From Bacteroidales bacterium (GTDB lineage Bacteria; Bacteroidota; Bacteroidia; Bacteroidales; WCHB1-69), in the NCBI GenBank assembly GCA_017438945.1, contig JAFRUI010000014.1:146360-210359 (forward strand): a stretch of 64,000 bases of DNA. Reading direction: 5' to 3'. Shown here piece after piece: positions 1,626 to 64,000 of the stretch (the first letter of the stretch is position 1; each line of letters starts with the position of its first letter). The notes beneath the pieces were generated by a model. That model ran no database searches. It was given only the letters and a program-made list of their open reading frames with translations, and was not told the DNA's origin. The position numbers and the translations under genes are program-made.

Positions 1626-1688
1626 GCGGTTTACGATTTACGATTTACGGTTTGCGACCTGAAACTTGAATCTTGAAACCTGAAACTA
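1626..1688. repeat. Heptamer tandem array, 9 units (GCGGTTT ACGATTT ACGATTT ACGGTTT GCGACCT GAAACTT GAATCTT GAAACCT GAAACTA)
   Basis: Read directly from the sequence with strict 7-nt phasing. It lies between the pnp terminator and the nif3 start. Confidence 0.9.
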
Positions 1689-1692
1689 TTAA

Positions 1693-1722
1693 AAGAGCGC
1701 CGTGACGATTCGCGGCGCTCTT
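1693..1722 (-). terminator. Rho-independent terminator of pnp
   Basis: A perfect 10-bp stem, AAGAGCGCCG / CGGCGCTCTT, followed on the minus strand by TTTTAAT. It lies 16 nt after the pnp stop. Confidence 0.75.
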
Positions 1723-1737
1723 CGTATGATGGGGAAA

Positions 1738-4041
1738 TTAGTCAAAATCGGGGAAGTCCCGTCTTTCCTGGCGGTGACGTTGGCCGTCGTGCTGGTTGCT
1801 GTTGCCCCGACGGGGAGCACCGCCTTGACGCCCGCGGTCACCACGATCACGGCCACCGTTACGGTCGCGGCCGCCGTTACGACCACCGTTACCACGCGGC
1901 TTTTCCTCTTCGTAACCCTCGGGTTTCGGGAGTAAAGCTCTGTGTGACAGTCTGTACTTGCCGGTCTTCTCATCGATTTCGATGAGCTTCACCTTGATCT
2001 TGTCGCCCACGTTGAGCACGTCAGCCACATTGTCGATACGGCGGTAAGCGATTTCGGAGACGTGCAGTAAACCGTCAGTGTTGGGTAGGAATTCCACGAA
2101 TGCACCGAAGTCGGTGATGGTCTTGACAGTGCCTTCGTAAATCTCACCCACTTCAGGAAGCGTGGTGATGAGTTTGATGCGCGCCATGGCAGCATTGATG
2201 TCATCCACGTTGGCGGCTGCGATGTCAATGATACCGAATTCACCGACCTCCTCAATGTTGATGACGGTGTTGGTCTCACGCTGCATCTCTTGGATGATCT
2301 TTCCTCCAGGTCCGATGACCGCGCCGATGAATTCGCGCGGGATTTGCATTTGGACGATACGCGGCACGAACGGACGGTAATCCTCTCTCGGTGCGGGCAT
2401 CGCTTCTTTGATCTTGCCAAGGATGAACATTCTGCCGCGGTGTGCCTGTGCCAAAGCTTCGGCCATCACTTCGGAAGAGAGTCCCTTGACCTTGATGTCC
2501 ATCTGGCAGGCAGTGATACCGTCTTCGGTACCGCAAACCTTAAAGTCCATGTCGCCGAGGTGGTCCTCGTCGCCGAGGATATCGGAGAGGATGGCGTAGC
2601 GGCCGGTAGCCTCATCGGTAATCAAGCCCATGGCGATACCGGAAACGGGCTTCTTCATCTTCACACCGCAATCAAGCAGCGCGAGGGTGCCAGCGCAAAC
2701 CGTTGCCATAGAGGAACTTCCGTTGGATTCGAGAATGTCGGAAACCAAGCGGACAGTATAGGGGAATGACGGATCGTCGAACGGAATCATCGGTTTGAGG
2801 GCGCGTTTGGCCAAGTTGCCGTGACCGACTTCGCGACGGGAGGTGCTGCCGATACGTTTCACCTCACCCACGCTGTAGGGAGGGAAGTTGTAGTGCAGCA
2901 GGAAACGGCTGGTGCCATCCACTACGGCGCCGTCGATGATCTGCTCGTCGAGCTTGGTGCCGAGCGTGCAGGTGGTCAAAGACTGGGTTTCACCGCGGGT
3001 GAAGATGGCGGAACCGTGTGCGGACGGCAGATAACCGGTCTCAATCCAGATGGGACGGATGTCCTCGGTGTGGCGGCCGTCGAGACGGATGCGCTCGTCG
3101 AGGATCATGTTGCGCATGGCGTGCCACAGGATTTCGTCGTAGTAGCGTTTCACCATCACGGCCTTCTCGTCGCGCTCCTCTTCGGGAATGGTCTCGATGA
3201 AGTCGGCGAGAATTTGGTCGAAATCGGCGTTGCGGTCTTGTTTGCCCTTGAAGGACTTGGCGACGGCATACACTTTGTCGTAAAGTTCGGTATTCATACG
3301 CTCACGGATGGCCTCGTCGTCGGTCTCGTGGCAGTATTCGCGTTTCGGGTTGGCGGTGGGCACCTGTGCGGCGAGATCCAACTGCGCCTGGCACTGCACT
3401 TTGATGGCTTCCTTGGCGAAATTGAGGGCGGCGACCATGTCGTCCTCGGAAATCTCATTCATCTCGCCTTCCACCATCATGATGTTGTCCATGGAGGCGG
3501 CCACGATCATGTCGATGTCGGAGCGTTCCATATCCTCAACGGTGGGGTTCACCACGAGTTGTCCGTCCACGCGGCCCACGCGCACCTCGGAAATCGGGCA
3601 CTCGAAGGGGATGTTGGAAACGGCGATAGCGGAAGAAGCTGCGAGACAGGCGAGGCAGTCGGGCAGGAAGTTCTTGTCGCCAGAAATCAGCGTCACAACG
3701 ACCTGAGTTTCAGCGTGGAAATTCTTGGGGAAGAGGGGACGGATGGCGCGGTCCACCAGACGGGCGATGAGGATCTCATACTCGGAAGGGCGTGCTTCGC
3801 GTTTGAAGAAACCGCCGGGGAAACGACCCACAGCGCCGTATTTTTCCTGATATTCAACTTGGAGAGGCATGAAGTCAGTGCCTTCAACGGCCTCTTTTTT
3901 GCAACACACGGTTGCGAGCAACATGGTGTTGCCCATGGTGACGACAGCAGCGCCGTCGGCCTGCTTCGCCAGCTTGCCGGTTTCAATCGTAACCATACGA
4001 CCGTCACCGATATCGAAAGTTGTTCTTACTCCTAAATTCAT
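1738..4041 (-). CDS. pnp: Polynucleotide phosphorylase with a C-terminal Arg/Gly-rich tail
   Basis: Two RNase PH domains, KH and S1 ([20 protein letters not shown]). The track ORF starts at TTG 4080. ATG 4041 ([14 protein letters not shown]) fits PNPase N-termini better. Confidence 0.95.
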
Positions 4042-4086
4042 AATGTTTTTTTTTAGATGTACGAGTTTCGACAATAACAAATATTC

Positions 4087-4118
4087 AAAAAGGCAATTTT
4101 CATCAAAATTGCCTTTTT
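4087..4118 (-). terminator. rpsO terminator / pnp leader hairpin
   Basis: A perfect 14-bp stem, AAAAAGGCAATTTT / AAAATTGCCTTTTT, with a 4-nt loop in the rpsO-pnp spacer. Confidence 0.7.
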
Positions 4119-4143
4119 GAATACTGAAATCGCCTGTAAAAAA

Positions 4144-4472: not shown

Positions 4473-4600
4473 CACTTTTTTCTTATATATCGCATGACGG
4501 ACGTACTATTTTTTATTTGGGCTACAGACATGCAACCGCTAACGCGGTTGGTCATCACGATCACTCACACTATTCACTGTTCACCATTCACAAAAAATTG

Positions 4601-4608
4601 TATCTTTG
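4601..4608 (+). promoter_or_regulatory. -7 box TATCTTTG for the dsrC-like gene
   Basis: Matches TAnnTTTG, 23 nt upstream of ATG 4631. Confidence 0.5.
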
Positions 4609-4630: not shown

Positions 4631-4948
4631 ATGGCAAATATTGAATTCAATAACAAGACCTACGAGATGGACGGCGACGGCTTCATGGTCCATCCGGAAG
4701 AATGGAACAAGGAACTGGCTGCGGAAATCGCCAAGGCCGACGGTATCACGGAGATGACCGAGAATCACTGGAAGGTGGTCGATTGCATCCGTGCCAACTA
4801 CGAGGAAAAAGGCATCGCCCCGATGGTCCGCACCATCTGCAAGACCGCCAATCTGAAACTGAAAGACATCTACGAACTCTTCCCGCTGGGTCCCGCGAGA
4901 GGTGCCTGCCGTGTGGCCGGTCTTCCCAAACCCGAAGGCTGCGTATAA
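4631..4948 (+). CDS. DsrC/TusE family sulfur-relay protein, DsrC type with two C-terminal cysteines
   Basis: MANIEFNNKTYEMDGDGFM... ends in GACRVAGLPKPEGCV, the Cys-X10-Cys C-terminal arm. The track ORF from 4517 reads through the promoter box, so ATG 4631 is preferred. Confidence 0.8.
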   Translation: MANIEFNNKTYEMDGDGFMVHPEEWNKELAAEIAKADGITEMTENHWKVVDCIRANYEEKGIAPMVRTICKTANLKLKDIYELFPLGPARGACRVAGLPKPEGCV

Positions 4949-4950
4949 TC

Positions 4951-5028
4951 GGCTTTTAGCTTTTAGCTATTAGCTTTTGGCTACGAGGTGTTCGCCAACA
5001 GCCAATGGCCAATAGCTAATAGCCAAAG
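4951..5028. repeat. Head-to-head heptamer arrays: (GGCTTTT/AGCTTTT/AGCTATT) x4.7, a 10-12 nt spacer, then (GCCAACA/GCCAATG/GCCAATA/GCTAATA) x5
   Basis: Starts 3 nt after the stop codon. The two arms are imperfectly complementary, with about 25 of 31 positions pairing by hand. Confidence 0.85.
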
Positions 5029-5081
5029 TCATAGATGCATAAATAATATAGGCTAAATCAACAAAACTTAAACTTGTAATT

Positions 5082-7145: not shown

Positions 7146-7180
7146 GCTGGCTGTTAGCTTTTAGCCGTTGGCTGTTGGCT
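7146..7180. repeat. Heptamer array, 5 units (GCTGGCT GTTAGCT TTTAGCC GTTGGCT GTTGGCT)
   Basis: Starts at the first nucleotide after the stop codon. Confidence 0.9.
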
Positions 7181-7255
7181 ATACATAGACAAAAACATAA
7201 ACTAATGATATAGACAATGGCCTTTTTTAATAATCATACTTCACCAAAAAGAAAA

Positions 7256-9668: not shown

Positions 9669-9707
9669 AAAAGTCAGGTTCTTTTACGACCTGACTTTTC
9701 TTTTTTC
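9669..9707 (+). terminator. Terminator after tRNA-Trp
   Basis: An 11-bp stem, AAAAGTCAGGT / ACCTGACTTTT, followed by CTTTTTT. Confidence 0.7.
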
Positions 9708-16670: not shown

Positions 16671-16705
16671 TTTGGCCATTGGCTATTAGCTTTTAGCTGT
16701 TGGCT
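16671..16705. repeat. Heptamer array, 5 units (TTTGGCC ATTGGCT ATTAGCT TTTAGCT GTTGGCT)
   Basis: Starts at the first nucleotide after the stop codon. Confidence 0.9.
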
Positions 16706-16720
16706 TTTTATACTGACTAT

Positions 16721-16748
16721 TTAACCCTTAACCTTTAAACCCTAAACC
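16721..16748. repeat. Heptamer array, 4 units (TTAACCC TTAACCT TTAAACC CTAAACC)
   Basis: A second array with a different unit in the same spacer. It ends 5 nt before the rfbC ATG. Confidence 0.85.
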
Positions 16749-16753
16749 ATATA

Positions 16754-17318: not shown

Positions 17319-17346
17319 GTAGAGACGTTGTGCGCAACGTCTCTAC
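17319..17346 (+). terminator. REP-like palindrome / terminator GTAGAGACGTTG TGCG CAACGTCTCTAC
   Basis: A perfect 12-bp stem followed by TGTTTTT, 17 nt after the rfbC stop. Confidence 0.7.
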
Positions 17347-20589: not shown

Positions 20590-20718
20590 ATGACAAAAGA
20601 TCACGAATCTAGTTTTAGCGAATCCGACGGCCGCACCAAACTGCTGCGCAACGACGACCAGCAGGAGTTTGTCATAGAGCGCATTAAGGAGCTGTGCGTG
20701 GAGAGTTTCGGGAAATAA
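20590..20718 (+). pseudogene. Collapsed 42-codon copy of the two-TM membrane-protein gene (N-terminal and C-terminal ends only)
   Basis: MTKDHESSFSESDGRTKLLR|NDDQQEFVIERIKELCVESFGK. The 5' part matches 22993-23017 and the 3' part matches 21856-21933. Not in the ORF track. Confidence 0.5.
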
Positions 20719-20733
20719 TAATAGGCGATAGGT

Positions 20734-21849: not shown

Positions 21850-21933
21850 TTCGGTCTGCTGCTCAACGAAGACCAGCAGGAGATTGTCATAGAGCGCATT
21901 AAGGAACTGTGCGTGGAGAGCTTTGAAAAATAG
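21850..21933 (+). pseudogene. 3'-terminal remnant of the two-TM membrane-protein gene
   Basis: FGLLLNEDQQEIVIERIKELCVESFEK-stop, in a different frame from the preceding ORF. About 87% nucleotide identity to 20641-20718. Confidence 0.6.
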
Positions 21934-21942
21934 AAAAAAGAC

Positions 21943-22956: not shown

Positions 22957-24546
22957 ATGCCAACAAACCCCGATTCAGACAAAAACGAGCTCGACGGCCG
23001 CACCAAACTGTTGCGCAGTCGCCCGGAGCCGGATCTCATACTCTTTTTCGGTCTGTGTACACTCATCGGTTCTGCATTCTGTATTATCGGCTTGATTTCC
23101 CTTATCTGGTGGATAATAGACGAGTGGCCCGATATATTTGGCATATTGTTTTTTATATTGCTACTGATGTTACCTGTCGCTTATACTTTATATGCTTTGG
23201 ATATGCTTGTTTGGCAGGTTAAGGGTGCCGAAACCGTGTCGTATGATGAAAACGGTATCGTAATCCATCTTAAAAAACTCATTGATAGGGAAACAACTAT
23301 TCCTTGGAACAGTATTGTGGAAGTGGAAAAATACAAGTCACCTTGGTGGATTTATTTCAGGAGGTCATACTTGTATGATGCCTCTCTTCGAATACATTAC
23401 ACGTCGGAGAATGGGAATCCAAACACGATCAGATTCGGGTTGCTGCTCAACGAGAAGCAGGAAGACATTATAATTGACAGAATTTACGAGCTTCGAGATA
23501 AATTTTCAACAAAAATGGATTATAACGATAGTGCCATCACCCTTTTCACACTGAAAAACGTCAACGGCCTCCGGGCAACCATCACAAACCTCGGAGGGCG
23601 CATCGTGTCGATGTTCGTGCCCGACAGAAATGGTATCCTGCGCGATGTGGTGCTCGGGTTCGAAAACGTGGAAGACTATCTTCCCGAAAACCACCGTTCC
23701 GATTTCGGGGCGGCGATCGGAAGATACGCGAACCGGCTGAACAACGGGCAGATAACCATCGACGGGAAAACGTACCAGCTGCCGCAAAACGATGGCAAGA
23801 ACTGCCTGCACGGCGGTCCTGACGGCTGGCAGTACCGCATCTTTAACGTTGAAGAAGTGGGCGACAACCGGCTGGTGCTGAGCTTGGTCAGCGAGGACGG
23901 CGACAGCGGGTTCCCGGGCAATGTGTGCGCCCGTGTCACCTACATGCTGACGGACGACAATGCGCTGGACATTGTGTACGAGGCGGTTACGGACGAGCCG
24001 ACGGTCATCAACATGACCAACCACAGCTACTTCAACCTCAACGGCGACGCTTCCACTGACATCCTCAACCACCTGCTGACCATAGACGCCGACCGCTACA
24101 CGCCGATCGGGGAAACCTTCATTCCCACGGGCGAGTTGGCTTCCGTTGAAGGCACACCGATGGACTTCCGGTGGCCCAAGCCGATTGGCCGCGACATCTC
24201 TGCCGACTTTGAGCAGCTGCGCATCGGCCACGGCTACGACCACAACTGGGTGCTGAACACCAAAGGCGACGATTCCCGTCCGTGCGCGCACTTGGAGAGT
24301 CCCGTAACGGGCATTGCCTTAGAGGTTTACACTACCGAACCGGGAATGCAGGTCTATACCGGCAACTTCCTCGACGGCACAGTTGTCGGGAAGGGTGGGG
24401 TAGTCTATCAACAGCGGGCGGCCGTCTGCCTCGAAACGCAGAAGTTCCCTGATTCGCCGAACCAGGGATGGCCGGAATCGGATGCGATTTTACGGCCAGG
24501 GGAGGTTTATCGGAGTCATACGATGTTTCGGTTCTCGAAACAGTAG
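22957..24546 (+). CDS. galM: In-frame fusion: two-TM membrane domain (about 186 aa) + aldose 1-epimerase
   Basis: The N-terminus has two TM helices plus a soluble domain ending FGLLLNEKQEDIIIDRIYELRDKF. From MDYNDSAITLF (about 23515) it is a full mutarotase (NHSYFNL, HGGPDGW). No stop codon separates the two parts. Confidence 0.8.
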   Translation: MPTNPDSDKNELDGRTKLLRSRPEPDLILFFGLCTLIGSAFCIIGLISLIWWIIDEWPDIFGILFFILLLMLPVAYTLYALDMLVWQVKGAETVSYDENGIVIHLKKLIDRETTIPWNSIVEVEKYKSPWWIYFRRSYLYDASLRIHYTSENGNPNTIRFGLLLNEKQEDIIIDRIYELRDKFSTKMDYNDSAITLFTLKNVNGLRATITNLGGRIVSMFVPDRNGILRDVVLGFENVEDYLPENHRSDFGAAIGRYANRLNNGQITIDGKTYQLPQNDGKNCLHGGPDGWQYRIFNVEEVGDNRLVLSLVSEDGDSGFPGNVCARVTYMLTDDNALDIVYEAVTDEPTVINMTNHSYFNLNGDASTDILNHLLTIDADRYTPIGETFIPTGELASVEGTPMDFRWPKPIGRDISADFEQLRIGHGYDHNWVLNTKGDDSRPCAHLESPVTGIALEVYTTEPGMQVYTGNFLDGTVVGKGGVVYQQRAAVCLETQKFPDSPNQGWPESDAILRPGEVYRSHTMFRFSKQ

Positions 24547-24570
24547 AGACGCGCCATGGCACGTCTCTAC
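24543..24570. repeat. REP-like palindrome GTAGAGACG CGCCATGGCA CGTCTCTAC
   Basis: A 9-bp perfect stem that overlaps the galM stop codon. Confidence 0.7.
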
Positions 24571-24632
24571 AAAAAAACACCGCCAAGTGAGATGACGGTG
24601 TTATTTGTAGCTGTTAGGAACGGAATGTCCCA

Positions 24633-24660
24633 AAAGTCTTAGGTCCTAAGTCTTAAGTCC
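24633..24660. repeat. Heptamer array, 4 units (AAAGTCT TAGGTCC TAAGTCT TAAGTCC)
   Basis: Ends at the nucleotide before the DUF937 gene stop codon on the minus strand. Confidence 0.85.
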
Positions 24661-25158
24661 TTATTTCTTGAAAATTTTCCCAAGCAGGCCGCCGAGGACC
24701 TTGCCGGCATTGGAGCTGCTGCTAGAGTTGGAGGCACCGCCCAGCAGTCCGCCAAGGATGTTGCCGATGTTGCCCGTGCCGGCCCCTTTGCCCAAAACGG
24801 AAAGGAGATTCGGAGCGATGGAGGCCAAGATGTTGGAAACCTGATCGTTGGTGGTGTTGGTCTGACCGCTCAAGTTGGAAACCACGGAACCCAGATTGCC
24901 GCCGAAGACTTTTTGCAGAATCTTCATGCCGTCTTCGATGTTAATGCCCATACCTTGACCTGCGTGGTTGCCCAGAGCTTGGGTTAATGCGGCTGCGCCA
25001 GCGGCAGTTCCAGCGTTTTTCTGCATTGAACTCAGAAATTTAGGGATAGCGGCCTTGATGACTTCGATGATTTTTTTCGGGTCAATTTTGAACTTTTTGG
25101 AAATCTCTTCGATGAGGTTGTTGCCCGTGAGCGAGGAAATGATACTGTTTAGATCCAT
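24661..25158 (-). CDS. DUF937-like protein with Gly/Asn/Leu-rich repeats
   Basis: 165 aa, MDLNSIISSLTGNNLIEEISKKFKIDPKK... with GGLLG repeats. Confidence 0.55.
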   Translation of the reverse strand: MDLNSIISSLTGNNLIEEISKKFKIDPKKIIEVIKAAIPKFLSSMQKNAGTAAGAAALTQALGNHAGQGMGINIEDGMKILQKVFGGNLGSVVSNLSGQTNTTNDQVSNILASIAPNLLSVLGKGAGTGNIGNILGGLLGGASNSSSSSNAGKVLGGLLGKIFKK

Positions 25159-25232
25159 AATGATAAATTTTTAAGGTTTGATTATACGAGGGCAAAAGTA
25201 CATTTTATTCTGATACGATGTTCATGTAAAAT

Positions 25233-25263
25233 GGCTTTTGGCTTTTAGCTAGTAGCTTTTGGC
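25233..25263. repeat. Heptamer array, 4.4 units (GGCTTTT GGCTTTT AGCTAGT AGCTTTT GGC)
   Basis: Abuts the stop codon of the minus-strand gene at 25264. Confidence 0.85.
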
Positions 25264-25875
25264 CTATTCCTCGTCATTTTCTTCGCTTTCCTCAATCTGA
25301 CTGATGATTTCCTCCGCGTTGCGGATCACCGATTTGTGCATCTTCCATCCGATGAATCCGCCTATTCCACCACCAATTAGTGTAGCAATGATAATGGTAA
25401 TTGTTAACTTCCAGTCTTTCAATTGAATATAGTATTCGATAGAGAGCCAGACAAGCCATACGATACTCATTGCAATACCATATTTCAGCCATTTTTGGTA
25501 GTTGTCACGTAGCTGTTTCATCACTTTGGCAACGGTTACCAGATCGCCGCTCATTGTCTTGGCATTCACATCCTTATGGTACTTCCAGGTGAAGAAATCG
25601 CACACGAGCATCATCAAGATGGTGGCGGCAATGAACCACCAGCTGAATCCCAAACTTCGGAGAGTGGTCAGTGCGCTGAAAATCACGAAAATAGAGGCGG
25701 TGATGCCGATCCATGCGGTGGTGTTGATGGATTTGGCCTTATGCTGCATCGTGTCGCGAAGAAGCTTGTCGGAAACGATGGTCTCCTTGTCTAATTTGTC
25801 CTTCAGCAGTGCGATTTGCGCACGCATGGTTTCCAATTCGCTGTTGTTTATTTCATTGTTTTCCATAACTAACAT
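25264..25875 (-). CDS. Membrane protein downstream of the ECF sigma (possible anti-sigma-like partner)
   Basis: 203 aa with an N-terminal coiled coil, 4 TM segments and an acidic tail. It overlaps the sigma gene stop by 7 nt. Confidence 0.5.
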   Translation of the reverse strand: MLVMENNEINNSELETMRAQIALLKDKLDKETIVSDKLLRDTMQHKAKSINTTAWIGITASIFVIFSALTTLRSLGFSWWFIAATILMMLVCDFFTWKYHKDVNAKTMSGDLVTVAKVMKQLRDNYQKWLKYGIAMSIVWLVWLSIEYYIQLKDWKLTITIIIATLIGGGIGGFIGWKMHKSVIRNAEEIISQIEESEENDEE

Positions 25876-26433: not shown

Positions 26434-26523
26434 GCAAAATGACACAGCGCTTCTAATCGAGCAGGAACCATGTTCAATTTTTTTGAACACAGCTTCTTTT
26501 TTGAACAAGATTGCATTTGTCCT

Positions 26524-26555
26524 CCCGCAGAACGCGCAGACTTCCGCAGAAAAAA
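26524..26555 (+). repeat. 32-nt direct repeat, copy 1 (CCCGCAGAACGCGCAGACTTCCGCAGAAAAA)
   Basis: 30/32 identical to 28238-28269. Confidence 0.85.
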
Positions 26556-26624
26556 ATCACATGCAAATACGTGCGATACGCGGAGATAAAAAATCGTATT
26601 TTCGCACCTGTAAAATTCACCGTT

Positions 26625-28237: not shown

Positions 28238-28269
28238 CCCGCAGAACTCGCTGACTTCCGCAGAAAAAG
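28238..28269 (+). repeat. 32-nt direct repeat, copy 2
   Basis: CCCGCAGAACTCGCTGACTTCCGCAGAAAAA. The inverted CTGCGGG lies at 28291-28297. Confidence 0.85.
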
Positions 28270-28307
28270 ATCTGCACGGATCAGCGTAGTCTGCGGGAAA
28301 ATGTCAA

Positions 28308-28342
28308 CAGCTCACAGCTCACCGTTCACTAATCACTAAAAA
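28308..28342. repeat. Heptamer array, 5 units (CAGCTCA CAGCTCA CCGTTCA CTAATCA CTAAAAA)
   Basis: Ends 3 nt before the galK -7 box. Confidence 0.85.
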
Positions 28343-28345
28343 TCG

Positions 28346-28353
28346 TACCTTTG
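28346..28353 (+). promoter_or_regulatory. -7 box TACCTTTG for galK
   Basis: Part of the 20-nt block CGTACCTTTGCCCCCTGAAA, which is also present upstream of recA. Confidence 0.55.
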
Positions 28354-28367
28354 CCCCCTGAAAATCC

Positions 28368-28389
28368 GAGACGCGGCATGCCACGTCTC
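28368..28389 (+). promoter_or_regulatory. Near-perfect 22-nt palindrome in the galK 5' leader (GAGACGCGGCATGCCACGTCTC)
   Basis: Lies between the -7 box and ATG 28411. It belongs to the same GAGACG...CGTCTC family as the three post-stop palindromes. Confidence 0.6.
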
Positions 28390-28410
28390 TACAAGGGTAA
28401 AACTCCGACT

Positions 28411-30998: not shown

Positions 30999-31028
30999 CC
31001 CGAAGTTCACTGTTCACTAAAAAAAACG

Positions 31029-31036
31029 TACCTTTG
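31029..31036 (+). promoter_or_regulatory. -7 box TACCTTTG for the VanX-like gene
   Basis: 20 nt upstream of ATG 31056. Confidence 0.5.
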
Positions 31037-31055
31037 CCAACCAAAATTCCCAATT

Positions 31056-31871: not shown

Positions 31872-31938
31872 GGGTCTATTAATGATGGAGTAGATAATGA
31901 TAACGGTGTGATAATTGAAATAAAAAAAACTGTGTTTT

Positions 31939-32433
31939 ATGAGAAAGTTATTGTTTTCGTTCGCTATTGTGATGATCGGCATTTTATCGGCTATTGCTCA
32001 GCCAGTAGGATATACCCACAAGGCTTTCCTTCCCGATGGCTGTGTGGTGAACTATTTGGTGGTAATCCAGAATGACAGCTGTTTTATCGAGGTGAACTTT
32101 GACTCCGACCAGTCAAAATTCACGGATCAACCCACGATGATGATTCGTACTTTTGCGGATGAAGTATTCAAGTTGAATGGATCGAACCCTGTATGCGTGG
32201 TCCAATCAAAATTAGTGGAGCGGGACGGTGAGACCAAGGTAGTTTCAGGTTTTTATTCAACAGTAAGATTCAATATTGAGCCATCTCAGATGGAGGCGCT
32301 GAAGAACGGAATTGCGAAAGTGAGACTCTCCACAACTCCGTATGAGCACGAGCGGGAATTCAAAAAAGATAAAATCGGCAAAAAACTGTATGAACACTAT
32401 CTGAAGGAGAAAGACAAAGATTCCAATTTCTAA
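31939..32433 (+). CDS. Hypothetical secreted protein
   Basis: 164 aa with signal peptide MRKLLFSFAIVMIGILSAIAQ. Confidence 0.55.
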   Translation: MRKLLFSFAIVMIGILSAIAQPVGYTHKAFLPDGCVVNYLVVIQNDSCFIEVNFDSDQSKFTDQPTMMIRTFADEVFKLNGSNPVCVVQSKLVERDGETKVVSGFYSTVRFNIEPSQMEALKNGIAKVRLSTTPYEHEREFKKDKIGKKLYEHYLKEKDKDSNF

Positions 32434-34896: not shown

Positions 34897-34917
34897 AGCT
34901 AACAGCCAATAGCCAAA
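34897..34917. repeat. Heptamer array, 3 units (AGCTAAC AGCCAAT AGCCAAA)
   Basis: Ends 6 nt before the SGLT -7 box. Confidence 0.75.
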
Positions 34918-36599: not shown

Positions 36600-36629
36600 T
36601 ATTGGCGAAGCACAACAGCTAACAGCCAA

Positions 36630-39600
36630 CTACTGCGACAGCATCAGCTGAAGCTGAATACCCGTCTGGAAATTCATCCGGTTGTATTGATTCTGGTTTT
36701 TCGGCCGGTTGATGGTTTGGTCGTAGTAGAATTTGATACCGACCATACGACTGAACTGATAATCCGCCGCCACATTAATGGTAATATCCAAGGATCCTGA
36801 TGTAACTTGCTCATCATCTTCCGTGATTCTACGCAGCATTGTCTGGTTGTCTTTCAGGCCAAATCCGGCTGTGAGATTCAAGTCGCTGACAAACTGCCGT
36901 TTCATGCCGGAAAACACCAGTCCAATCTTGATGTCTTTGAAGCGATAGCCTGCGGAGACAGTCACCTCTTTGCTGGTGGTTTCGGTCAGCTGGGTGTTTG
37001 TGAAACTCAAGGAGATGTTGCGGGATTGTTTGTATTCAACTTTCAGCAACATACTGTTTTTCAAAGTCATATCAAAACCAATGAGTGGGGAGAACTGTTC
37101 CGACAATGCCATTTGGCTGAGTTCGTGTGTGGAGATGAAGTCACCGAGGGCATTATATGCGTTGGGGAATCCATTTTCATCCTGAGTGTATGAGATGTTC
37201 GTAGAATAGCCGTTGACATTGTAGTTACAGGTGTAATTGTGGATAAGGGAGAAAGTCTGGAAGACCCTGTTCATACCTTTGATTTTGGTAAGTCCGTTGT
37301 AATTGATGCGCCAGTTGGGGAGCGGGATTTTCAAGAAGGGGGAGAAGATGTTGGATTTCTCAGCATCTTTATTCAGATAAGTGGCAAAGAAAGCACCCAT
37401 TAACACATCTTGGGATATGGCGCTGTAACCAATGGGGAATCCTGTCTCCGGGTCCACCTCTCCAGTGCTGTTGGGGTTGTTTTGGGCATAACGTTCCGAT
37501 AATTGAGCTCTTACAGCACGGAAATCTTGGAATAAATCGTCATGATTCTTAAAGAAAGTTCCTAAACCGCAATATGTCATGCTGAAGGAGCCGGAGCGTT
37601 GGGGGGTGTAGTGTTCCACAATACCCATCTCATTCACATGGAAGTATTCGGAGAAGTTTTCCGTGAAGTTGCGGTTTGCCGAAACGTCAATTCGGAAATC
37701 TTTGAAAGGTTCCACAGAAGCCCGGAAGTTGAGCACCTGGTTTTTGGTCCGCTGATATGGGGAATTCATCAGCGAGTCAGTTGTCAGCCAATGGTTTCTG
37801 GCTCCAATTTCTTGAATGTCAGGTTGGCCGCCGAACATAAACAGGAAGCCGGGTGTGCTGCTTTCCTTGGTATGTCCCACAAGTGTGGCCGAATACATAT
37901 AACCTGGCAAGGTTGTTCCGCGCCCTTGAGTATAGTTGGCGGAGACATTTCTGAGGGACATCAGCAGTCGCACGGTTCCATCCAGGATGATCTTGCCGAC
38001 TTGCGGCTTCTCTTTCAGCGAGTCGTTCTTGTCTCTGTTCTTTCTGCCCTTTTGGATTTCCTCTTCGGTCTCTTCTTTGGAAGCTTTGGAGTCTTTGGAG
38101 CCTTTAGGGTCTCTTGAGTTGGCGTTTTTGCCCGATTTGTTGTTCTGGAGAATGCCCTGGTTCACCTTTTTAAGATACGGGACAGAATTGTAAAGAGTCA
38201 CAAAATTCAAAGAGGCGTTCCCTTGAACATTCTGTGAGTTTTGGATGGTGTTGCCAAGGTATGCGAGCGAAAGAGCCGATGCGGAGAAGGTGTACATGGA
38301 GGTATAGCGTACATTGGCATTTACGAACTTGAACAACGGTATTTTGTTCAGCGGGAGTTGGTAGGTGGCGTTGAAGTTCTGGCGGTAGTCGGTGGTACGT
38401 CCTCCTTTGCCGATGCAGCGCCATAACGAGTCTTTTTTCACGCGGGTGTCAATACGTCCGTCCGGCTCGTCTATGCGTGCTGAAGCATCGGCTTTGAACT
38501 CCAATTTCAGACTTTGGAAGATATCCCAGTTGACAGCGTAGTTTCTTGTCCAGTCGTAGGATTTCACATAGTTGGTGTCAATGATGATATTTCCTTGACT
38601 CTTAGGACGGTATTTGAACTCCTGCAAATCACGGTGCATACTGGTGCGAACGGTGATGTTCTTCGGCATGGGTGTGATGTTGAAATCCCGGATCAGCTGG
38701 AGCCATTTGCTCTTGGTCCATTTTGCACGCGAGAAAGGACGGAAGTTTTTAGGGTTGGTGCTGAAGGTATAGCCGATTTCTCCATGATGAATGTATTCGT
38801 TATTCATCTCCATATCCTCATTGCGCTGAATCATTTCGGAATAGGAGTAAGAGAAGTCGAGGTTTTCGATATCCCAAGGATGCATTTTGGTGTTGCCCTT
38901 TGAGAAGTCACGCTCTTTGCGGACGTTCATCAGGTTCACATTCTGCCGTTGGGTTACCGTGTTGGTTAGGAAGCGCAGGGAGTCGCGGGCTTCGGCGTTG
39001 GGAAGTTGCGACAGCTCGTCTCTCATCTTAACATCCGGATTCAGCGGGTTGTATTCCGGTTGCACAACGCCCAAGGAGTAGTCGTAATGAAGAGGGATTC
39101 TGATATTCCATTTCTCCGGGAAGAAAAGTTTTCCTCCGTCGATGTTGGTGGCAATGTCCACGTTGATGTTGGTCTCATGAGCCCTTTCGGTAATGGATTG
39201 CTCTAAAGCTCCGTAGCCGGGGGTGGAGTATGTTCCAGACACGGTGATATTACCGACATCAGCGAGGGTGGTGCGGGCGCGCAGGAGGGCGGCGACCCCT
39301 TGACGGTCGTCGAAGCCGCTCAAACGCAGTTCGTTAATCCAGACTTCCGCTGATTTTGGCAACATGTCATCGTAGTAGCCGTGCGGGTCTGCATTTTGAG
39401 TCCGTTTCTTGGGGTTGCGAACGCCGATCATGATGGTCGTGACCTCGCCTAAGTTGGGGTTGCCCACCACGGTCATCCGGTTTTCGCCGGTTTCAAGACC
39501 TACAGGAGGGTAAGGTATGGTGTTGCCGGGATGCATGCCGTTTCTGACGGCGGCATTACGTTGCATCTTCAAAGCAACCAAGGAGTCCAATGAGATAAAC

Positions 39601-46748: not shown

Positions 46749-46799
46749 AAAATTTTTGTTACATGAAAATCAAATATAAACAAAAAAAGCAAGCAAACG

Positions 46800-46866
46800 G
46801 CTAAATGCTAATAGCCAATAACCAATAGCCAAAAGCTAACAGCCAACAGCCAACAGCCAACAGCCG
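46800..46866. repeat. Heptamer array, 9.5 units ending in 4 perfect GCCAACA
   Basis: GCTAAAT GCTAATA GCCAATA ACCAATA GCCAAAA GCTAACA GCCAACA x3 GCCG. It abuts the fucosidase stop codon on the minus strand. Confidence 0.92.
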
Positions 46867-48291
46867 TTACAGCACTACCACCACCGCGTCTTTTGCTTTC
46901 TGGCGCACACCTTTTGGCAATGTTATGGTGTATTCGTCACCTTTTTTGGAGATGGAGGCCTTTTCGGAGGAACCCAAAATGGTGGCTTTACCCGTTTTCA
47001 CGGGTTTCTCAAGGTTTTTGAAAGTATAGGTGGCGGGGGCGAGTTCGTTTTCGGGGAATAGCAGCAAAGCGTAGCGTTGCCCGTCTTTGCCCTGCGTGAA
47101 ACGAACTTGTCCGTAGCAATAGGGGAGGCAAGGGCGGGTGCTGTAAATTGCCTTTCCGTTGACGCTCAGCCATTTGCCCATGTCTTGCAAGCGTTCCACG
47201 GCGGTTTGCGGGAGGGTGCCCTCAGGGGATGGTCCCACATTAAGCAGGAAATTGCCGCCTTTGGCCACGATGTCGATCAGCAGGTGGATGAGCCGGTTGG
47301 TGGACTTGTAGTTGTCGGTGGCCACGTACGACCAGGAATCGCCCATCGACATGCAAGTTTCCCAGGGGTAGGGGAGCAGCGTGTCGGGGACCTCCTGTTC
47401 GGGGGTGCGGTAGTTCTCATATTTGCCGTGCACGCTGCGATCGACGATGATGAGGTCGGGGTTGTTAGCGCGCACATCCTTCGCCACCCGCGGCATGTCG
47501 ATGTCCTGGATCCAGCCCTGGCATCCGAGCCAGTCGCGGACTTCCTCGTCAACGCTCCACGCGGGGCGTACCCAGCCGCCGTCGAGCCACAGGATGTCAA
47601 TGTCGCCGTAGTTGTTGGCTATTTCGTGCAGCTGTTTGCGGGTGAAGTCGCAGTATTTCGCCCACCGTTCGGGATGTTTCTCGGGGTCGTAGTTCACGTT
47701 GCGGTCGGGGGTGGCCCATTCCGGCGCCCAGTAGTCGGGACAGTGCCAGTCGGGCTTCGAGAAATAAAGTCCTGTCCAAAGACCTTGACTCCGGAAAGCT
47801 TTCACCAATGCACCGGTCACGTCGGCGTTAGGGTTTTTGGAGAATGGACAATCTTTTCCGGTGACAGAGTAGTCGGTCTCTTTAGTGTCATACATGCAGA
47901 AGCCGTCGTGATGCTTGGTGGTGAACACGAAGTACTTCATGCCGCAATCTTTGGCCAGCTTCGCCCAAGATTCCGGGTCGAATTTTGTGGGATTGAAGGT
48001 TTTGTTAAGAGCCTGGTAGTTGGCCTTATATTCTGTATATGGAACGCCATCGCGGCTGATCCATGGTTCATTGCAGATGGACCACGACTCCACCACGCCC
48101 CATTGCGCGTAAATACCCCAGTGCATCATCAGTCCGAACTTCAGATCCTGCCACTGGTCAATGCGGTTCAGGATGACAGGGTCGGTTTCAAACTTTTGTT
48201 CGTCTTGTGCGTAAGATGTTGAAAATGAAATTATTGTAAATGTCAATAACAAAAAACGGAGGAGGTTGTTTTTTCTGAAAGCCATAATCAT
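46867..48291 (-). CDS. Alpha-L-fucosidase, GH29
   Basis: Signal peptide, HWGIYAQWG, TTKHHDGFCMYDT and DILWLDGGW. Confidence 0.9.
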   Translation of the reverse strand: MIMAFRKNNLLRFLLLTFTIISFSTSYAQDEQKFETDPVILNRIDQWQDLKFGLMMHWGIYAQWGVVESWSICNEPWISRDGVPYTEYKANYQALNKTFNPTKFDPESWAKLAKDCGMKYFVFTTKHHDGFCMYDTKETDYSVTGKDCPFSKNPNADVTGALVKAFRSQGLWTGLYFSKPDWHCPDYWAPEWATPDRNVNYDPEKHPERWAKYCDFTRKQLHEIANNYGDIDILWLDGGWVRPAWSVDEEVRDWLGCQGWIQDIDMPRVAKDVRANNPDLIIVDRSVHGKYENYRTPEQEVPDTLLPYPWETCMSMGDSWSYVATDNYKSTNRLIHLLIDIVAKGGNFLLNVGPSPEGTLPQTAVERLQDMGKWLSVNGKAIYSTRPCLPYCYGQVRFTQGKDGQRYALLLFPENELAPATYTFKNLEKPVKTGKATILGSSEKASISKKGDEYTITLPKGVRQKAKDAVVVVL

Positions 48292-53614: not shown

Positions 53615-53615
53615 G

Positions 53616-53680
53616 AGCTTTTGGTTTTTAGCTTTTAGCAAAATATTTTAATAGCCAACAGCCAACAGCTAATAGCAAAA
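53616..53680. repeat. Head-to-head heptamer arrays: (AGCTTTT GGTTTTT AGCTTTT AGCAAAA), a spacer, then (AGCCAAC AGCCAAC AGCTAAT AGCAAAA)
   Basis: Starts 2 nt after the recA stop and ends 9 nt before the next ATG. Confidence 0.85.
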
Positions 53681-53689
53681 AAAGACAGA

Positions 53690-54694: not shown

Positions 54695-55720
54695 ATGAAC
54701 GAGAATCTGGATCCCACCACCCAACACCTGTCGGCCTCGGACAAAGAGTTCGAACGGGCGATTCGTCCTGCACAATTCACGGATTTCCAGGGACAGAAAC
54801 AGGTCTTGGAGAATCTGATGGTCTTCGTGCACGCGGCCAAAGGGCGTGGCGAAGCATTAGACCATGTCCTCCTGCACGGTCCTCCGGGCTTGGGCAAGAC
54901 CACCCTGTCGCACATCATCGGCAACGAGATGGGCGTGAACGTGCGTGTCACTTCCGGGCCCGTCATTGACAAACCCGGCGATCTGGCCGGACTGCTTACT
55001 AACCTGGAACCGCACGATGTCCTGTTCATCGACGAAATCCACCGTTTATCGCCGGTGGTGGAGGAGTACCTCTACTCAGCGATGGAGGATTACAAAATCG
55101 ACATCATGATTGACAGTGGTCCGAGCGCGCGTAGCGTGCAGATTTCCATCAACCCGTTCACGCTGGTGGGCGCCACCACACGGTCGGGTTTGCTGACAGC
55201 GCCGTTGCGTTCGCGCTTCGGTATCAACCTGCGTCTGCAATACTATGATGCCCAGACACTTGGCAACATCATTAAACGGTCGGCTTCCATTTTGGACATC
55301 CCCATTGACGAGGATGCCGCATACGAAATCGCTTCCCGTAGTCGTGGCACTCCGCGTATCGCCAACCTGTTGTTGCGACGTGTCCGCGACTTCGCCCAGA
55401 TCAAAGGCGACGGCACCATCACCCTGCCCATCACTCAGATTGCCTTGACAGCGTTGAATGTCGATAAACACGGTTTGGACGAGATGGACAACCGTATCCT
55501 GAGCACCATCATCGACAAGTTCAAGGGCGGTCCGGTAGGCTTGAGCACCATCGCCACCGCCGTGGGCGAAGACCCTGGCACCATCGAGGAGGTCTATGAG
55601 CCGTTCCTCATCCAGGAAGGTTACCTGATGCGCACCCCCCGCGGACGCGAAGCCACCGACCTGGCGTTCACGCACCTGGGGAAGTCGAGGTATGTGTCGG
55701 GGCAGGGGGAGCTGTTCTGA
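54695..55720 (+). CDS. ruvB: Holliday junction helicase RuvB
   Basis: [16 protein letters not shown] and RTPRGR. Confidence 0.98.
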
Positions 55721-55760
55721 ATTAAGAATGCAGAATTAAGAATTAAGAATTAAGAATGAG
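55719..55760. repeat. Heptamer array, 6 units (GAATTAA GAATGCA GAATTAA x3 GAATGAG)
   Basis: The first unit overlaps the ruvB TGA stop codon. Confidence 0.92.
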
Positions 55761-55782
55761 GGAGAGGTAACTACTATCCCAA

Positions 55783-55830
55783 CAATTATCAATTATCAAT
55801 TATCAATTATCAATTATCAATTATCAATTC
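55783..55830. repeat. Heptamer array: CAATTAT x6 perfect plus a partial unit
   Basis: Read directly from the sequence. This is the most perfect array in the window. Confidence 0.95.
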
Positions 55831-56240: not shown

Positions 56241-56248
56241 TACTTTTG
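56241..56248 (+). promoter_or_regulatory. -7 box TACTTTTG for lon
   Basis: 55 nt upstream of ATG 56303, abutting the L31 terminator stem. Confidence 0.4.
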
Positions 56249-56286
56249 CTGACCTTTTTTGTAACCCGAAAAAGGTCAGTTTTTTT
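56249..56286 (+). terminator. L31 rho-independent terminator
   Basis: An 11-bp stem, CTGACCTTTTT / AAAAAGGTCAG, followed by TTTTTTT. Confidence 0.8.
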
Positions 56287-61486: not shown

Positions 61487-61552
61487 GATATAGAACGTAT
61501 AATTTTTTTTAGAAAAAAGCGTTAAACACGATCAAATAAGTAAAAAAAGAAT

Positions 61553-62500: not shown

Positions 62501-62528
62501 AGGTTCATACTTAAAACTTTTGGATGAC

Positions 62529-63476
62529 ATGGTTAGTAGGCGTTATTTGAGAATCAAGACAATGCAGGCGTTATATGCGTATAACGCTAATCCTAAGGCA
62601 AACATGGCAAGCGCAGAAGCTGATTTGCTGAAATCTGTCCGCAGCTGCTATGCACTGTTCCTCTGGCTATTCGCTTTGCTGCCGGAAATCGCTTTTTACC
62701 GAACAAAAAAACTGGAAAGTCTGAAAGAAAAATATAACCCTACGGCAGAAGACTTGAACCCCAACACCAGATTCGTGAACAATGCGGTGATCCGGCAGAT
62801 TGAAAACAACAAAGAACTCCAGCAACTTTGGCCCAAATACCATGTCCTTTGGGAAGATGAAACGGATCTGATCGCCAAATTGTTCCGTGAAATAGAGCAG
62901 CTGCCTGAATACGAAGTGTATATGTCGGGGCGCGAAAATGATTACCAAGAAGACAAAAAGTTTGTACTGACGGTGATAGAGAAGGTTTTCGCTGACAACG
63001 ACTTGCTGCATTGGTACTTGGGTGAAAAAAACACGCATTGGATAGATGACTATGATGAAGCAATGATGATGCTTTATCAGAATGTGAAAGATTTCAAAGA
63101 GGCCAAGGGCGATGAATGTAAAATAGATTCCTTATACAAAAGTTCCGATGATGAACTTTTCTGCAAGCAGCTGTTCCGCAAGACGCTTGAACATGCGGAC
63201 GAATATACCCAGCTGATTGAGGGAAAACTCCAGAATTGGGAATTGGAAAGGGTCATCAACTTGGACATGCTTTTGATGCAGATGGCTTTGGCCGAGCTGC
63301 TCGAATTCCCCCAAATTCCCATCAAAGTGACGTTGAACGAGTATATAGAGATGGCGAAATGGTACAGTTCGGAGAAAAGCAAGGTGTTTGTCAACGGCAT
63401 CTTGGATCGTCTGATTGTGGATTTGCGCGATAACGGACGCATAGTGAAAACGGGGAGAGGGTTGTATCAGAATTGA
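62529..63476 (+). CDS. nusB: Transcription antitermination factor NusB (long Bacteroidota form)
   Basis: RRYLRIKTMQALYAY N-terminus and C-terminal KVFVNGILDRL. The start is TTG 62520 or ATG 62529. Confidence 0.8.
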   Translation: MVSRRYLRIKTMQALYAYNANPKANMASAEADLLKSVRSCYALFLWLFALLPEIAFYRTKKLESLKEKYNPTAEDLNPNTRFVNNAVIRQIENNKELQQLWPKYHVLWEDETDLIAKLFREIEQLPEYEVYMSGRENDYQEDKKFVLTVIEKVFADNDLLHWYLGEKNTHWIDDYDEAMMMLYQNVKDFKEAKGDECKIDSLYKSSDDELFCKQLFRKTLEHADEYTQLIEGKLQNWELERVINLDMLLMQMALAELLEFPQIPIKVTLNEYIEMAKWYSSEKSKVFVNGILDRLIVDLRDNGRIVKTGRGLYQN

Positions 63477-63507
63477 TAATGGATAATTGATAATGGATAA
63501 TTGATAA
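63473..63507. repeat. Heptamer array, 5 units (TTGATAA TGGATAA) alternating
   Basis: The nusB TGA lies in unit 1, and the ATG of the next gene begins at the last base of unit 5. Confidence 0.92.
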
Positions 63508-63974
63508 TGAGAAAGACGACAATATTGTTAATGTTAACCATCGGATTGGTGTTTGGTGGGTGTCATCGGAAGCCCGCCAAGGAAGGCGATTTTTCGGTGA
63601 AGGATGTGCATATCCCGCAGACTGCCGAAGGAATGTCTGCCAAGGATGCTGAAAAGCTCCCAGTCATTGAATTTGAAACCAAAACGTACGACTTTGGGGA
63701 TGTAATAGAAGGCGAGAGGCTGACGTATGCTTTCAAGTTCAAAAATACAGGTAAGTCAAATCTGATTATCTATTCTTCCGAAGCTACTTGCGGCTGCACC
63801 ACCTCGCAGCCTCCAAAGGCACCTGTCCGTCCGGGTGAGAGCGGGGAAATTGTCGTCACGTTCGACTCCAAGGGTCAGAAAGGCAAAGTGCAGAAACGGG
63901 TCTTGGTAGGCGCCAACACCTATCCCGTGGAAACCATCCTGACCATCACTGCGAATGTGTCGTCGAGTAAGTGA
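63507..63974 (+). CDS. DUF1573 domain lipoprotein
   Basis: FKFKNTGKSNLII...ATCGCTTSQPPK...PGESGEIVVTFDS. Confidence 0.8.
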   Translation: MRKTTILLMLTIGLVFGGCHRKPAKEGDFSVKDVHIPQTAEGMSAKDAEKLPVIEFETKTYDFGDVIEGERLTYAFKFKNTGKSNLIIYSSEATCGCTTSQPPKAPVRPGESGEIVVTFDSKGQKGKVQKRVLVGANTYPVETILTITANVSSSK

Positions 63975-64000
63975 ACAGTGATAAGTGAACAGTGATTAGT
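63969..64000. repeat. Heptamer/14-mer array (AAGTGAA CAGTGAT) x2 plus a partial unit, running off the window
   Basis: Contains the stop codon of the DUF1573 gene. Confidence 0.85.

Follow-up and report, generated by a model that had tools for sequence, protein, structure and literature searches.

The subject of this analysis is a stretch of 64 kb (hereafter, the window) from a Bacteroidales bacterium, assembly GCA_017438945.1, contig JAFRUI010000014.1, positions 146,360 to 210,359 of the forward strand, and the tandem arrays of 7-nt units found in its intergenic spacers. All window counts given below refer to this single stretch, whose gene map was built from Pfam matches and synteny with related contigs. 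The host genes are typical of Bacteroidota: SprA and CHU_C, which belong to the type IX secretion system (T9SS), are encoded, and the promoters are of the TAnnTTTG type. The metagenome-assembled genome (MAG) GCA_029008075.1 is about 98% identical to the window. The arrays had been pointed out previously by a model that read the letters alone (the sequence-only reading).

Heptamer arrays in the spacers of the window

In the intergenic DNA, the level of self-match at lag 7 is 0.342, compared with 0.277 in dinucleotide shuffles (z = 10.6), and harmonics are observed at lags 14 and 21; the coding DNA has period 3 only. Lag 7 is thus enriched, as the sequence-only reading had expected. Arrays were searched for with Tandem Repeats Finder (TRF) and with our own detector, which applies one scoring scheme to every period and was run at a loose and a strict threshold, expected counts being taken from dinucleotide shuffles. 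The spacers contain 21 period-7 arrays at the loose threshold (1.07 expected) and 12 at the strict one (0.09 expected). The same detector found no arrays at periods 5, 6, 8, 9 and 10 in the window spacers and no period-7 array in the window genes, which agrees with the intergenic location noted earlier; all 12 strong arrays lie within the non-coding 8% of the window. No period-7 array was detected in a 50-kb control region of E. coli K-12. The density of arrays in the window is about one per 3 kb. Since they occupy 15 of 41 spacers and cover 11% of the intergenic bases, the statement that most spacers carry them was an overstatement.

According to TRF, the arrays have period 7 and 2–10 copies arranged head-to-tail without spacers, with 0% indels in all arrays but one. 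The period-7 calls are 1630-1687, 4568-4591, 4952-5026, 7148-7180, 16682-16748, 24634-24661, 25232-25263, 28307-28322, 46791-46865, 53616-53669, 55719-55829, 63471-63509, and 63968-64000. Nearly all coordinates of the sequence-only reading are recovered in this way; the three shortest arrays (31004-31024, 34897-34917, and 36617-36630) are under the TRF score and are seen by eye in the sequence.

The largest family, TTRGCYN, comprises ten arrays in eight spacers. Four arrays belong to the GTGAAYN/TTCACNN family and two to the TTGATAA family, while GAATKNN, TAAACCY, AAATCGT, GTTTCAR, and TAAGTCY (period-7/14) are represented by one array each. CAATTAT (55783-55830) and TTGATAA (63473-63507) had been listed apart; as they are reverse complements, they form a single family.

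Eleven of the 21 arrays contain a stop codon or begin 0-6 nt after one. To this extent the proposed placement between a stop codon and the next promoter box holds; the remaining arrays adjoin a start codon or a promoter box. Three arrays (1623-1653, 16721-16748, and 63471-63509) extend to a few bases 5' of an ATG, and four end just 5' of the promoter-like motif A5-7-nnG-TAnnTTTGC (4551-4592, 28307-28342, 31004-31020, and 34897-34917). Several operon-internal spacers are nearly all array (7146-7216, 16671-16753, 53615-53689, and 63477-63506). The promoter-like motif itself occurs at 32 window sites compared with 9 expected (e.g., at 4601, 28346, 31029, 34924, 52556, and 55912), and several of them are followed by CCCCC; its -33 region is not conserved, and an array often sits there.

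Table 1. Period-7 arrays of the window and their gene context.
Repeat unit	Position	Strand	Context
(AAATCGT/AAACCGT)n	1623-1653	-	ends 4 nt before the ATG (1618) of a NIF3-family gene
(GTTTCAR)n	1660-1687	-	flanked by the pre-start array 1623-1653 and the terminator hairpin of PNPase (1690-1725)
(TTCACNN)n, weak	4551-4592	+	DsrC-like gene: just 5' of its A-tract/TATCTTTGC promoter box (4601)
(TTAGCTT/TTGGCTN) x4.4	4951-4982	+	5' arm; begins 3 nt past the stop of the DsrC-like gene
(AGCCAAY/AGCTAAT) x4.7	4994-5028	+	complementary 3' arm; pairs with 4951-4982
(TTRGCYN) x5	7146-7182	+	starts at the stop of the beta-CASP/RMMBL gene
(TTGGCCA/TTAGCTT) x5	16671-16708	+	1 nt past the stop of the CLC-channel gene
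(TTAACCC/TAAACCY) x4	16721-16748	+	ends 5 nt before the rfbC ATG
(AGGACTTAAGACTTA), period-7/14	24633-24661	-	starts at the stop of the DUF937 gene
TTRGCYN family, RGCYAA orientation	25232-25263	-	abuts the stop of 25264-25875; 5' of the DUF937 promoter (25200)
(ACAGCTC)x2, then (TTCACTA/ATCACTA)	28307-28342	+	ends 4 nt before the galK TACCTTTGC box
(TTCACTG) x2.4	31004-31020	+	M15 dipeptidase gene: 5' of its A-tract/TACCTTTGC box
(AGCYAAN) x3	34897-34917	+	ends 6 nt before the TACTTTTGC box (34924)
(TTGGCTG/TTAGCTG) x2.5	36613-36630	-	starts at the stop of SprA; flanking genes convergent
(TTGGCTG/TTAGCTT/TTGGCTA) x10	46791-46866	-	1 nt past the alpha-L-fucosidase stop
(AGCTTTT/GGTTTTT) x3.4	53616-53639	+	5' arm; 1 nt past the recA stop
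(AGCCAAC/AGCTAAT) x3.5	53653-53680	+	complementary 3' arm; partner of 53616-53639
(GAATTAA/GAATGCA) x6	55719-55760	+	ruvB stop TGA inside the first unit
(CAATTAT) x6.9	55783-55830	+	reverse complement of TTGATAA; 5' of the rpmE2 promoter
(TTGATAA/TGGATAA) x5.6	63471-63509	+	whole spacer; holds the NusB-like stop and the DUF1573 ATG
(GTGAACA/GTGATAA)	63968-64000	+	contains the DUF1573 stop; 5' arm of an inverted pair running beyond the window

The arrays 28308-28342 and 31004-31024 had been placed after stop codons of minus-strand open reading frames (ORFs). These long ORFs, 28336-29337 (-) and 31017-31982 (-), have no Pfam match and are antisense to galK (28378-29523, +) and the M15 dipeptidase gene (31056-31871, +), respectively; they are probably spurious, and the real genes of both sites are on the plus strand. 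In practice, arrays shift spacer lengths and create spurious opposite-strand ORFs of this kind, misleading ORF-based gene calls. They also yield false sigma-70 promoter matches: both TTGATAA-family arrays (55783-55830 and 63471-63509) contain, on the relevant strand, sigma-70-like matches (TTGATA-17-GATAAT), which are probably meaningless in Bacteroidota.

Some details can be noted for individual sites. The GTTTCAR array is partly complementary to its neighbor 1623-1653 (fold z = -2.3), and the AAATCGT/AAACCGT unit also stands directly before an ATG in the rumen MAG RUG125 (locus L069). The array 25232-25263 is identical across 10 near-identical strains. Past the 3' end of the window, the DUF1573–yajC spacer of contigs L490-L493 consists of a GTGAWYA array, a complementary AAATCAC array, and then (AAAC/AAAT)n running to the yajC ATG; apart from this 4-nt run, all tandem repeats noticed in the clade spacers examined have period 7. 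A second dispersed hairpin element, CCGCAGA...TCTGCGG, is found at 28240-28300, where it adjoins the array 28307-28342, and at about 26500-26560. A segment of about 70 nt (GACCAGCAGGAG..GTCATAGAGCGCATTAAGGA..) is common to the spacers at about 20650-20720 and 21868-21935 and looks like a duplicated gene fragment.

Variation between relatives and wider distribution

Copy-number polymorphism of the arrays was found in the ruvB–L31 and recA–TPR spacers. In the ruvB–L31 spacer, four contigs with about 98% identity to the window depart from it solely by whole 7-nt units, in both arrays. Among contigs of sister species (beta-CASP gene with 86-94% identity, lon 5' end with 77-80%, and ruvB 3' end with 86-94%), 8 of 9 have a GAAT-NNN array that starts in the ruvB stop codon; its units number 4 to 28, no preferred value being apparent. 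Among relatives, its units consist of GAAT followed by GTA, GCT, GAT, GAA, or TAA and are arranged as runs of identical variants, a signature of local duplication. The CAATTAT array has about 3 to 7 full units in relatives. The arms in the recA–TPR spacer have 3.5 + 3.5 units in the window and 5 + 5 in strains L003 and L004. Of the roles suggested by the sequence-only reading, that of slippage-prone spacers is therefore borne out, both by the strains differing in whole units and by the range in sister species.

Between the two ruvB–L31 arrays, the non-repeat element GAGGGAGAGGTAACTACTATCCCAA (55761-55782) is nearly invariant in most related contigs (L480-L489), whose lon is only about 80% identical to that of the window; L488 has a variant, and L485 lacks the element. 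GAATGAT/GAATGCT units (L480, L484, L487, and L489) have overlapping ATG/TGA triplets in all three frames (TGAATGATGAATG...) and could encode tiny ORFs.

Other spacers combine constancy of place with replacement of sequence. A TTRGCYN array lies directly past the stop of the DsrC-like gene in 10 of 10 related strains and species. After the beta-CASP/RMMBL gene, other species have TAAGAGT arrays or a REP-like (repetitive extragenic palindrome) hairpin with TAAACCY arrays, and TAAACCY arrays recur right before start codons in related species. In strain L451, the genes flanking the CLC–rfbC spacer are 98.1-99.5% identical to those of the window, and the 83-nt spacer is swapped for an unrelated one of 139 nt with (AATGTAG)x6 past the stop, a GTAGAGACG...CGTCTCTAC palindrome, and (TTCACTA)x4 before the ATG. 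The order of units in the array 63471-63509 varies between strains. The comparisons of the DsrC-like, ruvB, and TAAACCY sites across sister species show that the position and unit family of an array persist, while its copy number and fine sequence change fast.

A TAACTGC array is present in the related species L472, L475, and L476. In L474, the spacer downstream of DsrC (2919-3263) is 344 nt long and comprises about nine GGTTTAA-type units and then about 250 nt of complementary CCCCTAA/TTAAACC units. In contig L002 (ERZ27280320 k141_2075338), the alpha-L-fucosidase gene adjoins recA, a rearrangement relative to the window.

A scan for (TTRGCYN)x4 with one genome per species matched at least 120 loci. 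Among the matches listed, Bacteroidota are represented by many rumen MAGs, Alistipes, Chitinophagaceae, and Maribacter; Acidobacteriota, Cyanobacteria, Desulfobacterota, Planctomycetota, Gemmatimonadota, Clostridia, and candidate phyla are listed as well. The isolates among them are Cnuella takakiae, Maribacter sp. R86514, Chitinophaga hostae, Fibrella rubiginis, and Moorena producens. The listed loci contain 281 arrays of period 7 compared with 21, 23, and 8 of periods 6, 8, and 9. Among the matches listed, 164 arrays outside the window had not themselves served for selection; 35 of these are again TTRGCYN, compared with about 1.4% by chance in our estimate, and the rest have very diverse units. 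In 519 kb from 80 Bacteroidota ruvB loci, sampled without bias from metagenomes, 25 period-7 arrays were found against 2-6 at other periods, which is about a quarter of the array density of the window. Viral contigs also carry arrays: TTRGCYN was found at 120 loci or more, and two scrambled-unit controls were found at 50 and 72. TTRGCYN is thus favored at most modestly in the virome, and any heptamer can form arrays, since the scrambled units do so too.

This distribution bears on the suspicion that the arrays are assembly or sequencing artefacts. The window appears to be metagenome-derived (100% identity to contig L001), and short tandem repeats can be mis-assembled; however, arrays recur in independent ENA, JGI, NCBI, and Logan assemblies, and similar ones are found in isolates of Cnuella, Chitinophaga, Fibrella, Moorena, and Maribacter sp. 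R86514, the last with a complete chromosome. We regard an artefact as practically negligible.

Strand polarity, pairing and the origin of the arrays

On the comparison loci, whose genes are crude ORF calls, arrays concentrate -1 to +3 nt from stop codons, far above the level at start codons, and their strand composition depends on the position. In arrays located 0-10 nt past a stop, the sense strand has more G than C in 66 cases and the reverse in 17 (p = 6e-8); without the main family, the ratio is 42:11. At 31-60 nt downstream of the stop, C exceeds G in 44:25, and arrays not more than 25 nt from a start are A- and C-rich. The main family occurs near stops as TTRGCY 52 times and as RGCYAA 23 times.

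The proximity to stop codons had led the sequence-only reading to the idea of frame-independent translational stops, or of terminators or pause sites past genes. Many arrays do abut stops, and in the units TTAGCTT, GAATTAA, TTGATAA, and GTGAACA a stop triplet rotates through the three frames. Yet 53% of post-stop units have a stop triplet when read on the sense strand, compared with 50% for the antisense strand and 43% for shuffled letters, without strand bias; such triplets are commoner in pre-start arrays (62%), and the commonest unit, TTGGCTG, has none. As for termination, a T-run follows none of the hairpins built from arrays, and matches resembling terminators in the 60 kb of the window that were scanned are at or below the level of shuffles, so that an identity with intrinsic terminators was rejected. 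In Maribacter, a 19-unit array and then a separate canonical terminator follow the stop. Better terminator-like sites, which are not arrays, are present at 17319-17346, 4080-4125, 9669-9699, 24576-24602, and 56248-56280. Stops, terminators, and pause sites are therefore a very improbable account of the arrays. The stop codon is embedded in the first unit at the ruvB, NusB-like, and DUF1573 genes; the seeding of arrays by duplication of the stop-codon heptamer was considered and dropped as a general rule, there being no excess of stop triplets on the sense strand.

Adjacent arrays are reverse-complementary in 33 of 123 cases, compared with about 6% expected. Over all loci, 114 inverted pairs were found, separated by a median of 19.5 nt, and in 86 of them the first arm is the G+T-rich one (p = 5e-8); in the window, such pairs are located at 4951-5028, 53616-53680, and from 63968 onward. 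The claim that direct repeats cannot fold was wrong, because TTRGCYN has a self-complementary RGCY core and often adjoins a complementary array. The predicted fold of 4946-5035 has -35.1 kcal/mol (z = -5.6), and the single array at 46790-46869 self-folds as sense RNA (minus strand) with -34.0 kcal/mol (z = -5.8), compared with -15.8 for the antisense. The TTGATAA, GAATTAA/CAATTAT, and GTGAAYN arrays have no predicted structure (z from +0.2 to +1.2), so a universal hairpin role was rejected. When the unit order in one arm is permuted, the minimum free energy is -41.7 kcal/mol compared with -41.0 as found, and the lengths of paired arms are uncorrelated. Pairing is thus generic to the family and not fine-tuned, and the idea of hairpins selected for matching arms was rejected. 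A palindromic core of 4 nt (AGCT, GGCC, AATT, or TTAA) is present in 7 of 11 window units (about 36% expected); as a rule, it was dropped since it fails for the classic short tandemly repeated repetitive (STRR) sequences and the TAACTGA units in a check by eye.

Polarity and folding could indicate that the arrays are functional transcript modules: REP-like stem-loops past the stop, which would make the upstream message more stable, stop exonucleases or Rho, or cause ribosomes to uncouple, and unstructured A/C-rich leaders before the ATG, with copy number as a tuning. The sense-strand polarity past stops and before starts, the two strong hairpins just described, and the conservation of family and position across species favor this, as do the rplM–rpsI–rpsB spacers of Cnuella takakiae, which are TTRGCYN hairpins between stop and ATG. 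The sense RNA of post-stop arrays also folds better than the antisense (49:22, p = 6e-4), but this bias follows from the G>C skew via G–U pairs and is not independent evidence. Against it, several families are unstructured, no unit-level covariation between arms is seen, several G-poor arrays lie 5' of the promoter box and so outside the transcript of the downstream gene, and copy number ranges from 4 to 28, no preferred value being apparent. We consider transcript modules possible, though on balance rather unlikely.

With moderate confidence, we lean towards the explanation that the arrays are slippage-born microsatellites that fill free spacer DNA, their orientation being filtered by constraints at the RNA level. 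Replication slippage would generate arrays and drive their turnover, a whole 7-nt unit at a time, aided by point mutations that are afterwards re-amplified. Arrays would accumulate in any unoccupied spacer DNA, between the stop codon and either the promoter A-tract and -7 box or the last bases before the start. Selection would act mainly as a filter on the strand orientation that survives at each position and may be the cause of the polarity: G-rich, C-poor, self-pairing arrays would be tolerated right after stops, and G-poor, A/C-rich, unstructured arrays right before starts. The pre-start filter would fit a lineage that initiates without Shine–Dalgarno pairing; passages of PMC3155529 describe the lack of Shine–Dalgarno use and low GC 5' of starts in Bacteroidetes, which also suits unstructured leaders as transcript modules. 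Complementary pairs would give long register-tolerant hairpins, either as a side effect or with some mild advantage to the transcript like that of REPs, and the arrays would have no dedicated function. Filling is favored by the several arrays that span from stop to start or from stop to promoter box. Slippage is favored by the species with 80-93% identical flanks, which have 4-28 units as runs of identical variants.

Several points weigh against slippage and filling. Slippage alone leaves a period of 7 rather than 5, 8, 10, or 11 unexplained. TAAACCY and AAATCGT before the ATG, and TTRGCYN, GAATKNN, and GTGAWYA after stops, recur across genes and species. Family and position persist at 80-93% flank identity, longer than an unconstrained microsatellite might last. 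Inverted pairs are enriched about 5-fold and are polar, which pure filling does not predict; complementary arms could be created without selection by intramolecular template switching at quasi-palindromes. Moreover, the comparison loci were mostly picked for carrying one array family, and genes on loci outside the window are crude ORF calls only. Since slippage does not explain the period, the positional persistence, and the polar pairs, transcript modules and binding proteins stay alive as rivals, and a dedicated function of the arrays is possible.

As tracks for a binding protein, the arrays would be read one heptamer per domain, by an OB-fold protein of the cold-shock or S1 type on RNA or single-stranded DNA or by a regulator on the duplex. 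This would account for the strict 7-nt period, otherwise unexplained, and for units in which an invariant core stands beside variable positions (TT-R-GC-Y-N and GAAT-NNN). A precedent is CspB, which, as summarized in PMC4679880, binds heptamer direct repeats with one protein per heptamer, and in a Nostoc study, reporter activity changed when heptamer repeats were deleted. However, at least six unrelated unit families are present in the window and hundreds across loci; therefore, many specific readers or one unspecific reader would be needed, and no candidate gene is linked to the arrays in the window. The TTGATAA/CAATTAT family corresponds to tandem TGATAAT half-sites of the Fur/Zur box. Its array 55783-55830 is 5' of rpmE2, whose L31 has no cysteines; the array does not overlap the rpmE2 promoter but is located about 80 nt upstream of it. 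A dedicated reader is thus improbable.

A broader view, which we hold as doubtful, is that heptamer arrays are cross-phylum, strand-polar elements that selection maintains or that a process or protein specific for heptamers produces, and not slippage debris. If so, G-rich self-pairing arrays would mark the end of a frame and G-poor unstructured ones would lead into the next start, the two often being matched as a register-tolerant hairpin, and the 7-nt period would reflect the footprint that a reader or a polymerase has. In that case, the densest test bed in nature would be the rumen Bacteroidales clade, where orthologous architecture is kept while sequence is swapped wholesale. Heptamer repeats have been known in bacterial spacers since 1990, with neither period nor function explained. 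To this, the clade adds density, several times that of unbiased Bacteroidota loci, and a natural allelic series of orthologous sites at which the unit number ranges from 4 to 28 or the arrays are entirely different. As cultured carriers exist (Cnuella takakiae, Maribacter sp. R86514, Chitinophaga hostae, and Fibrella rubiginis), the question is testable at the bench.

Comparison with known repeat classes

Several known classes can be set apart. The arrays are not CRISPR, as stated before, because their units are 7 nt long and contiguous, whereas CRISPR repeats have 24-48 nt and unique spacers. Miniature inverted-repeat transposable elements had been discounted for lack of terminal inverted repeats; the arrays have no fixed ends and vary in 7-nt steps, although target-site duplications were not searched for and inverted pairs could mimic terminal inverted repeats. 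In the window, Rfam 15 at the gathering score matched two tRNAs only, which argues against a known RNA family. Searching the literature for exact array strings gave chance matches only.

The sequence-only reading did not recognize a described repeat class; in fact, intergenic heptanucleotide repeats have been described (PMC4679880 and PMC4692102), and the arrays are heptanucleotide simple-sequence repeats (SSRs) of the STRR or long-SSR kind. As summarized in these two papers, Mrazek, Guo and Shah (2007) found heptanucleotides to be the most abundant long SSRs (5-11 nt), mostly outside genes and with a patchy phylogeny, and proposed polymerase slippage. The window shows the same tandem 7-nt units in above-chance number, the intergenic bias, and variation by whole units; going by those summaries, the long SSRs of 2007 differ in being a statistical class without anatomy. 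A literature search found no account of such arrays in Bacteroidales, though the Bacteroidales coverage of Mrazek 2007 was not checked.

With the cyanobacterial STRR, the arrays share dispersed tandem-heptamer families, non-coding location, many copies per genome, and the absence of a known function. The STRR class, reportedly described by Mazel et al. in 1990, is said to have been defined in heterocystous cyanobacteria with the units CCCCAGT, TTGGTCA, and CAACAGT. The phylum is different here, and these three units are absent from the TRF consensus units. STRR are also mentioned in PMC4692102.

MacGregor (2015; PMC4679880) described TAACTGA direct repeats in marine Beggiatoaceae, some Cyanobacteria, and five Bacteroidetes; they are intergenic, have a fixed orientation relative to the neighboring gene, and often lie a few bases 5' of the start codon. 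Other heptamer repeats were noted there in spacers of Gramella and Aequorivita. Pre-start placement is common to 1623-1653 and 16721-16748 here. In contrast to the one dominant unit of typically 2-6 copies, the arrays described here have many units, and about half of them lie past stops; the TAACTGA unit is absent among the arrays of the window. In a Nostoc preprint, the deletion mentioned above altered reporter output.

A comparison with REPs and bacterial interspersed mosaic elements (BIMEs), which are dispersed extragenic palindromes forming stem-loops in the transcript, indicates a common extragenic location past stops or between operon genes and the capacity for stem-loops. REPs, however, are fixed imperfect palindromes of 20-40 nt, whereas arrays are tandem 7-mers that change in unit steps. 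REPs with GTAG/CGTC tags are treated in passages of PMC3733652; no link of RAYT with the arrays was seen, RAYT presence not having been searched for. The clade does have a family of REP-like palindromes, GTAGAGACG-N8-10-CGTCTCTAC, found in the window at 17319-17346, 24543-24570, and 28366-28392 (the galK ATG at 28378 lies in one loop) and in L451, L470, L472, L475, L476, and L479; in related strains and species, they replace a post-stop heptamer array.

The closest anatomical description is that of Rehm et al. (2015; PMC4692102) for the intergenic heptamers GGGAATC in Xanthomonas and GGGGAYT in Nostoc, which lie mainly between co-oriented genes. These repeats overlap the stop codon or lie a few bases from it with the G-rich strand as the sense strand, while the opposite strand is found 5' of starts; 70-75 convergent inverted pairs occur per genome, and position is kept while length varies between related species. 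Shared with the present arrays are the 7-nt units, the intergenic location chiefly between co-oriented genes, stop proximity, a G-rich sense strand past stops and a G-rich antisense strand 5' of starts, inverted pairs, and fixed position with variable length. The units here (TTRGCYN, GAATKNN, GTGAAYN, TTGATAA, TAAACCY, and AAATCGT) differ in having no G-tracts and cannot form G-quadruplexes; a GGG tract is present in none of the TRF consensus units. Since the published polarity and stop proximity hold in such units too, a G-quadruplex account cannot be general. The host, an uncultured rumen Bacteroidales, is also different, and several unrelated families are found within one window. What is new relative to the described heptamers is, therefore, the host clade, the unit families, the dense natural allelic series, and the polarity in units without G-tracts.

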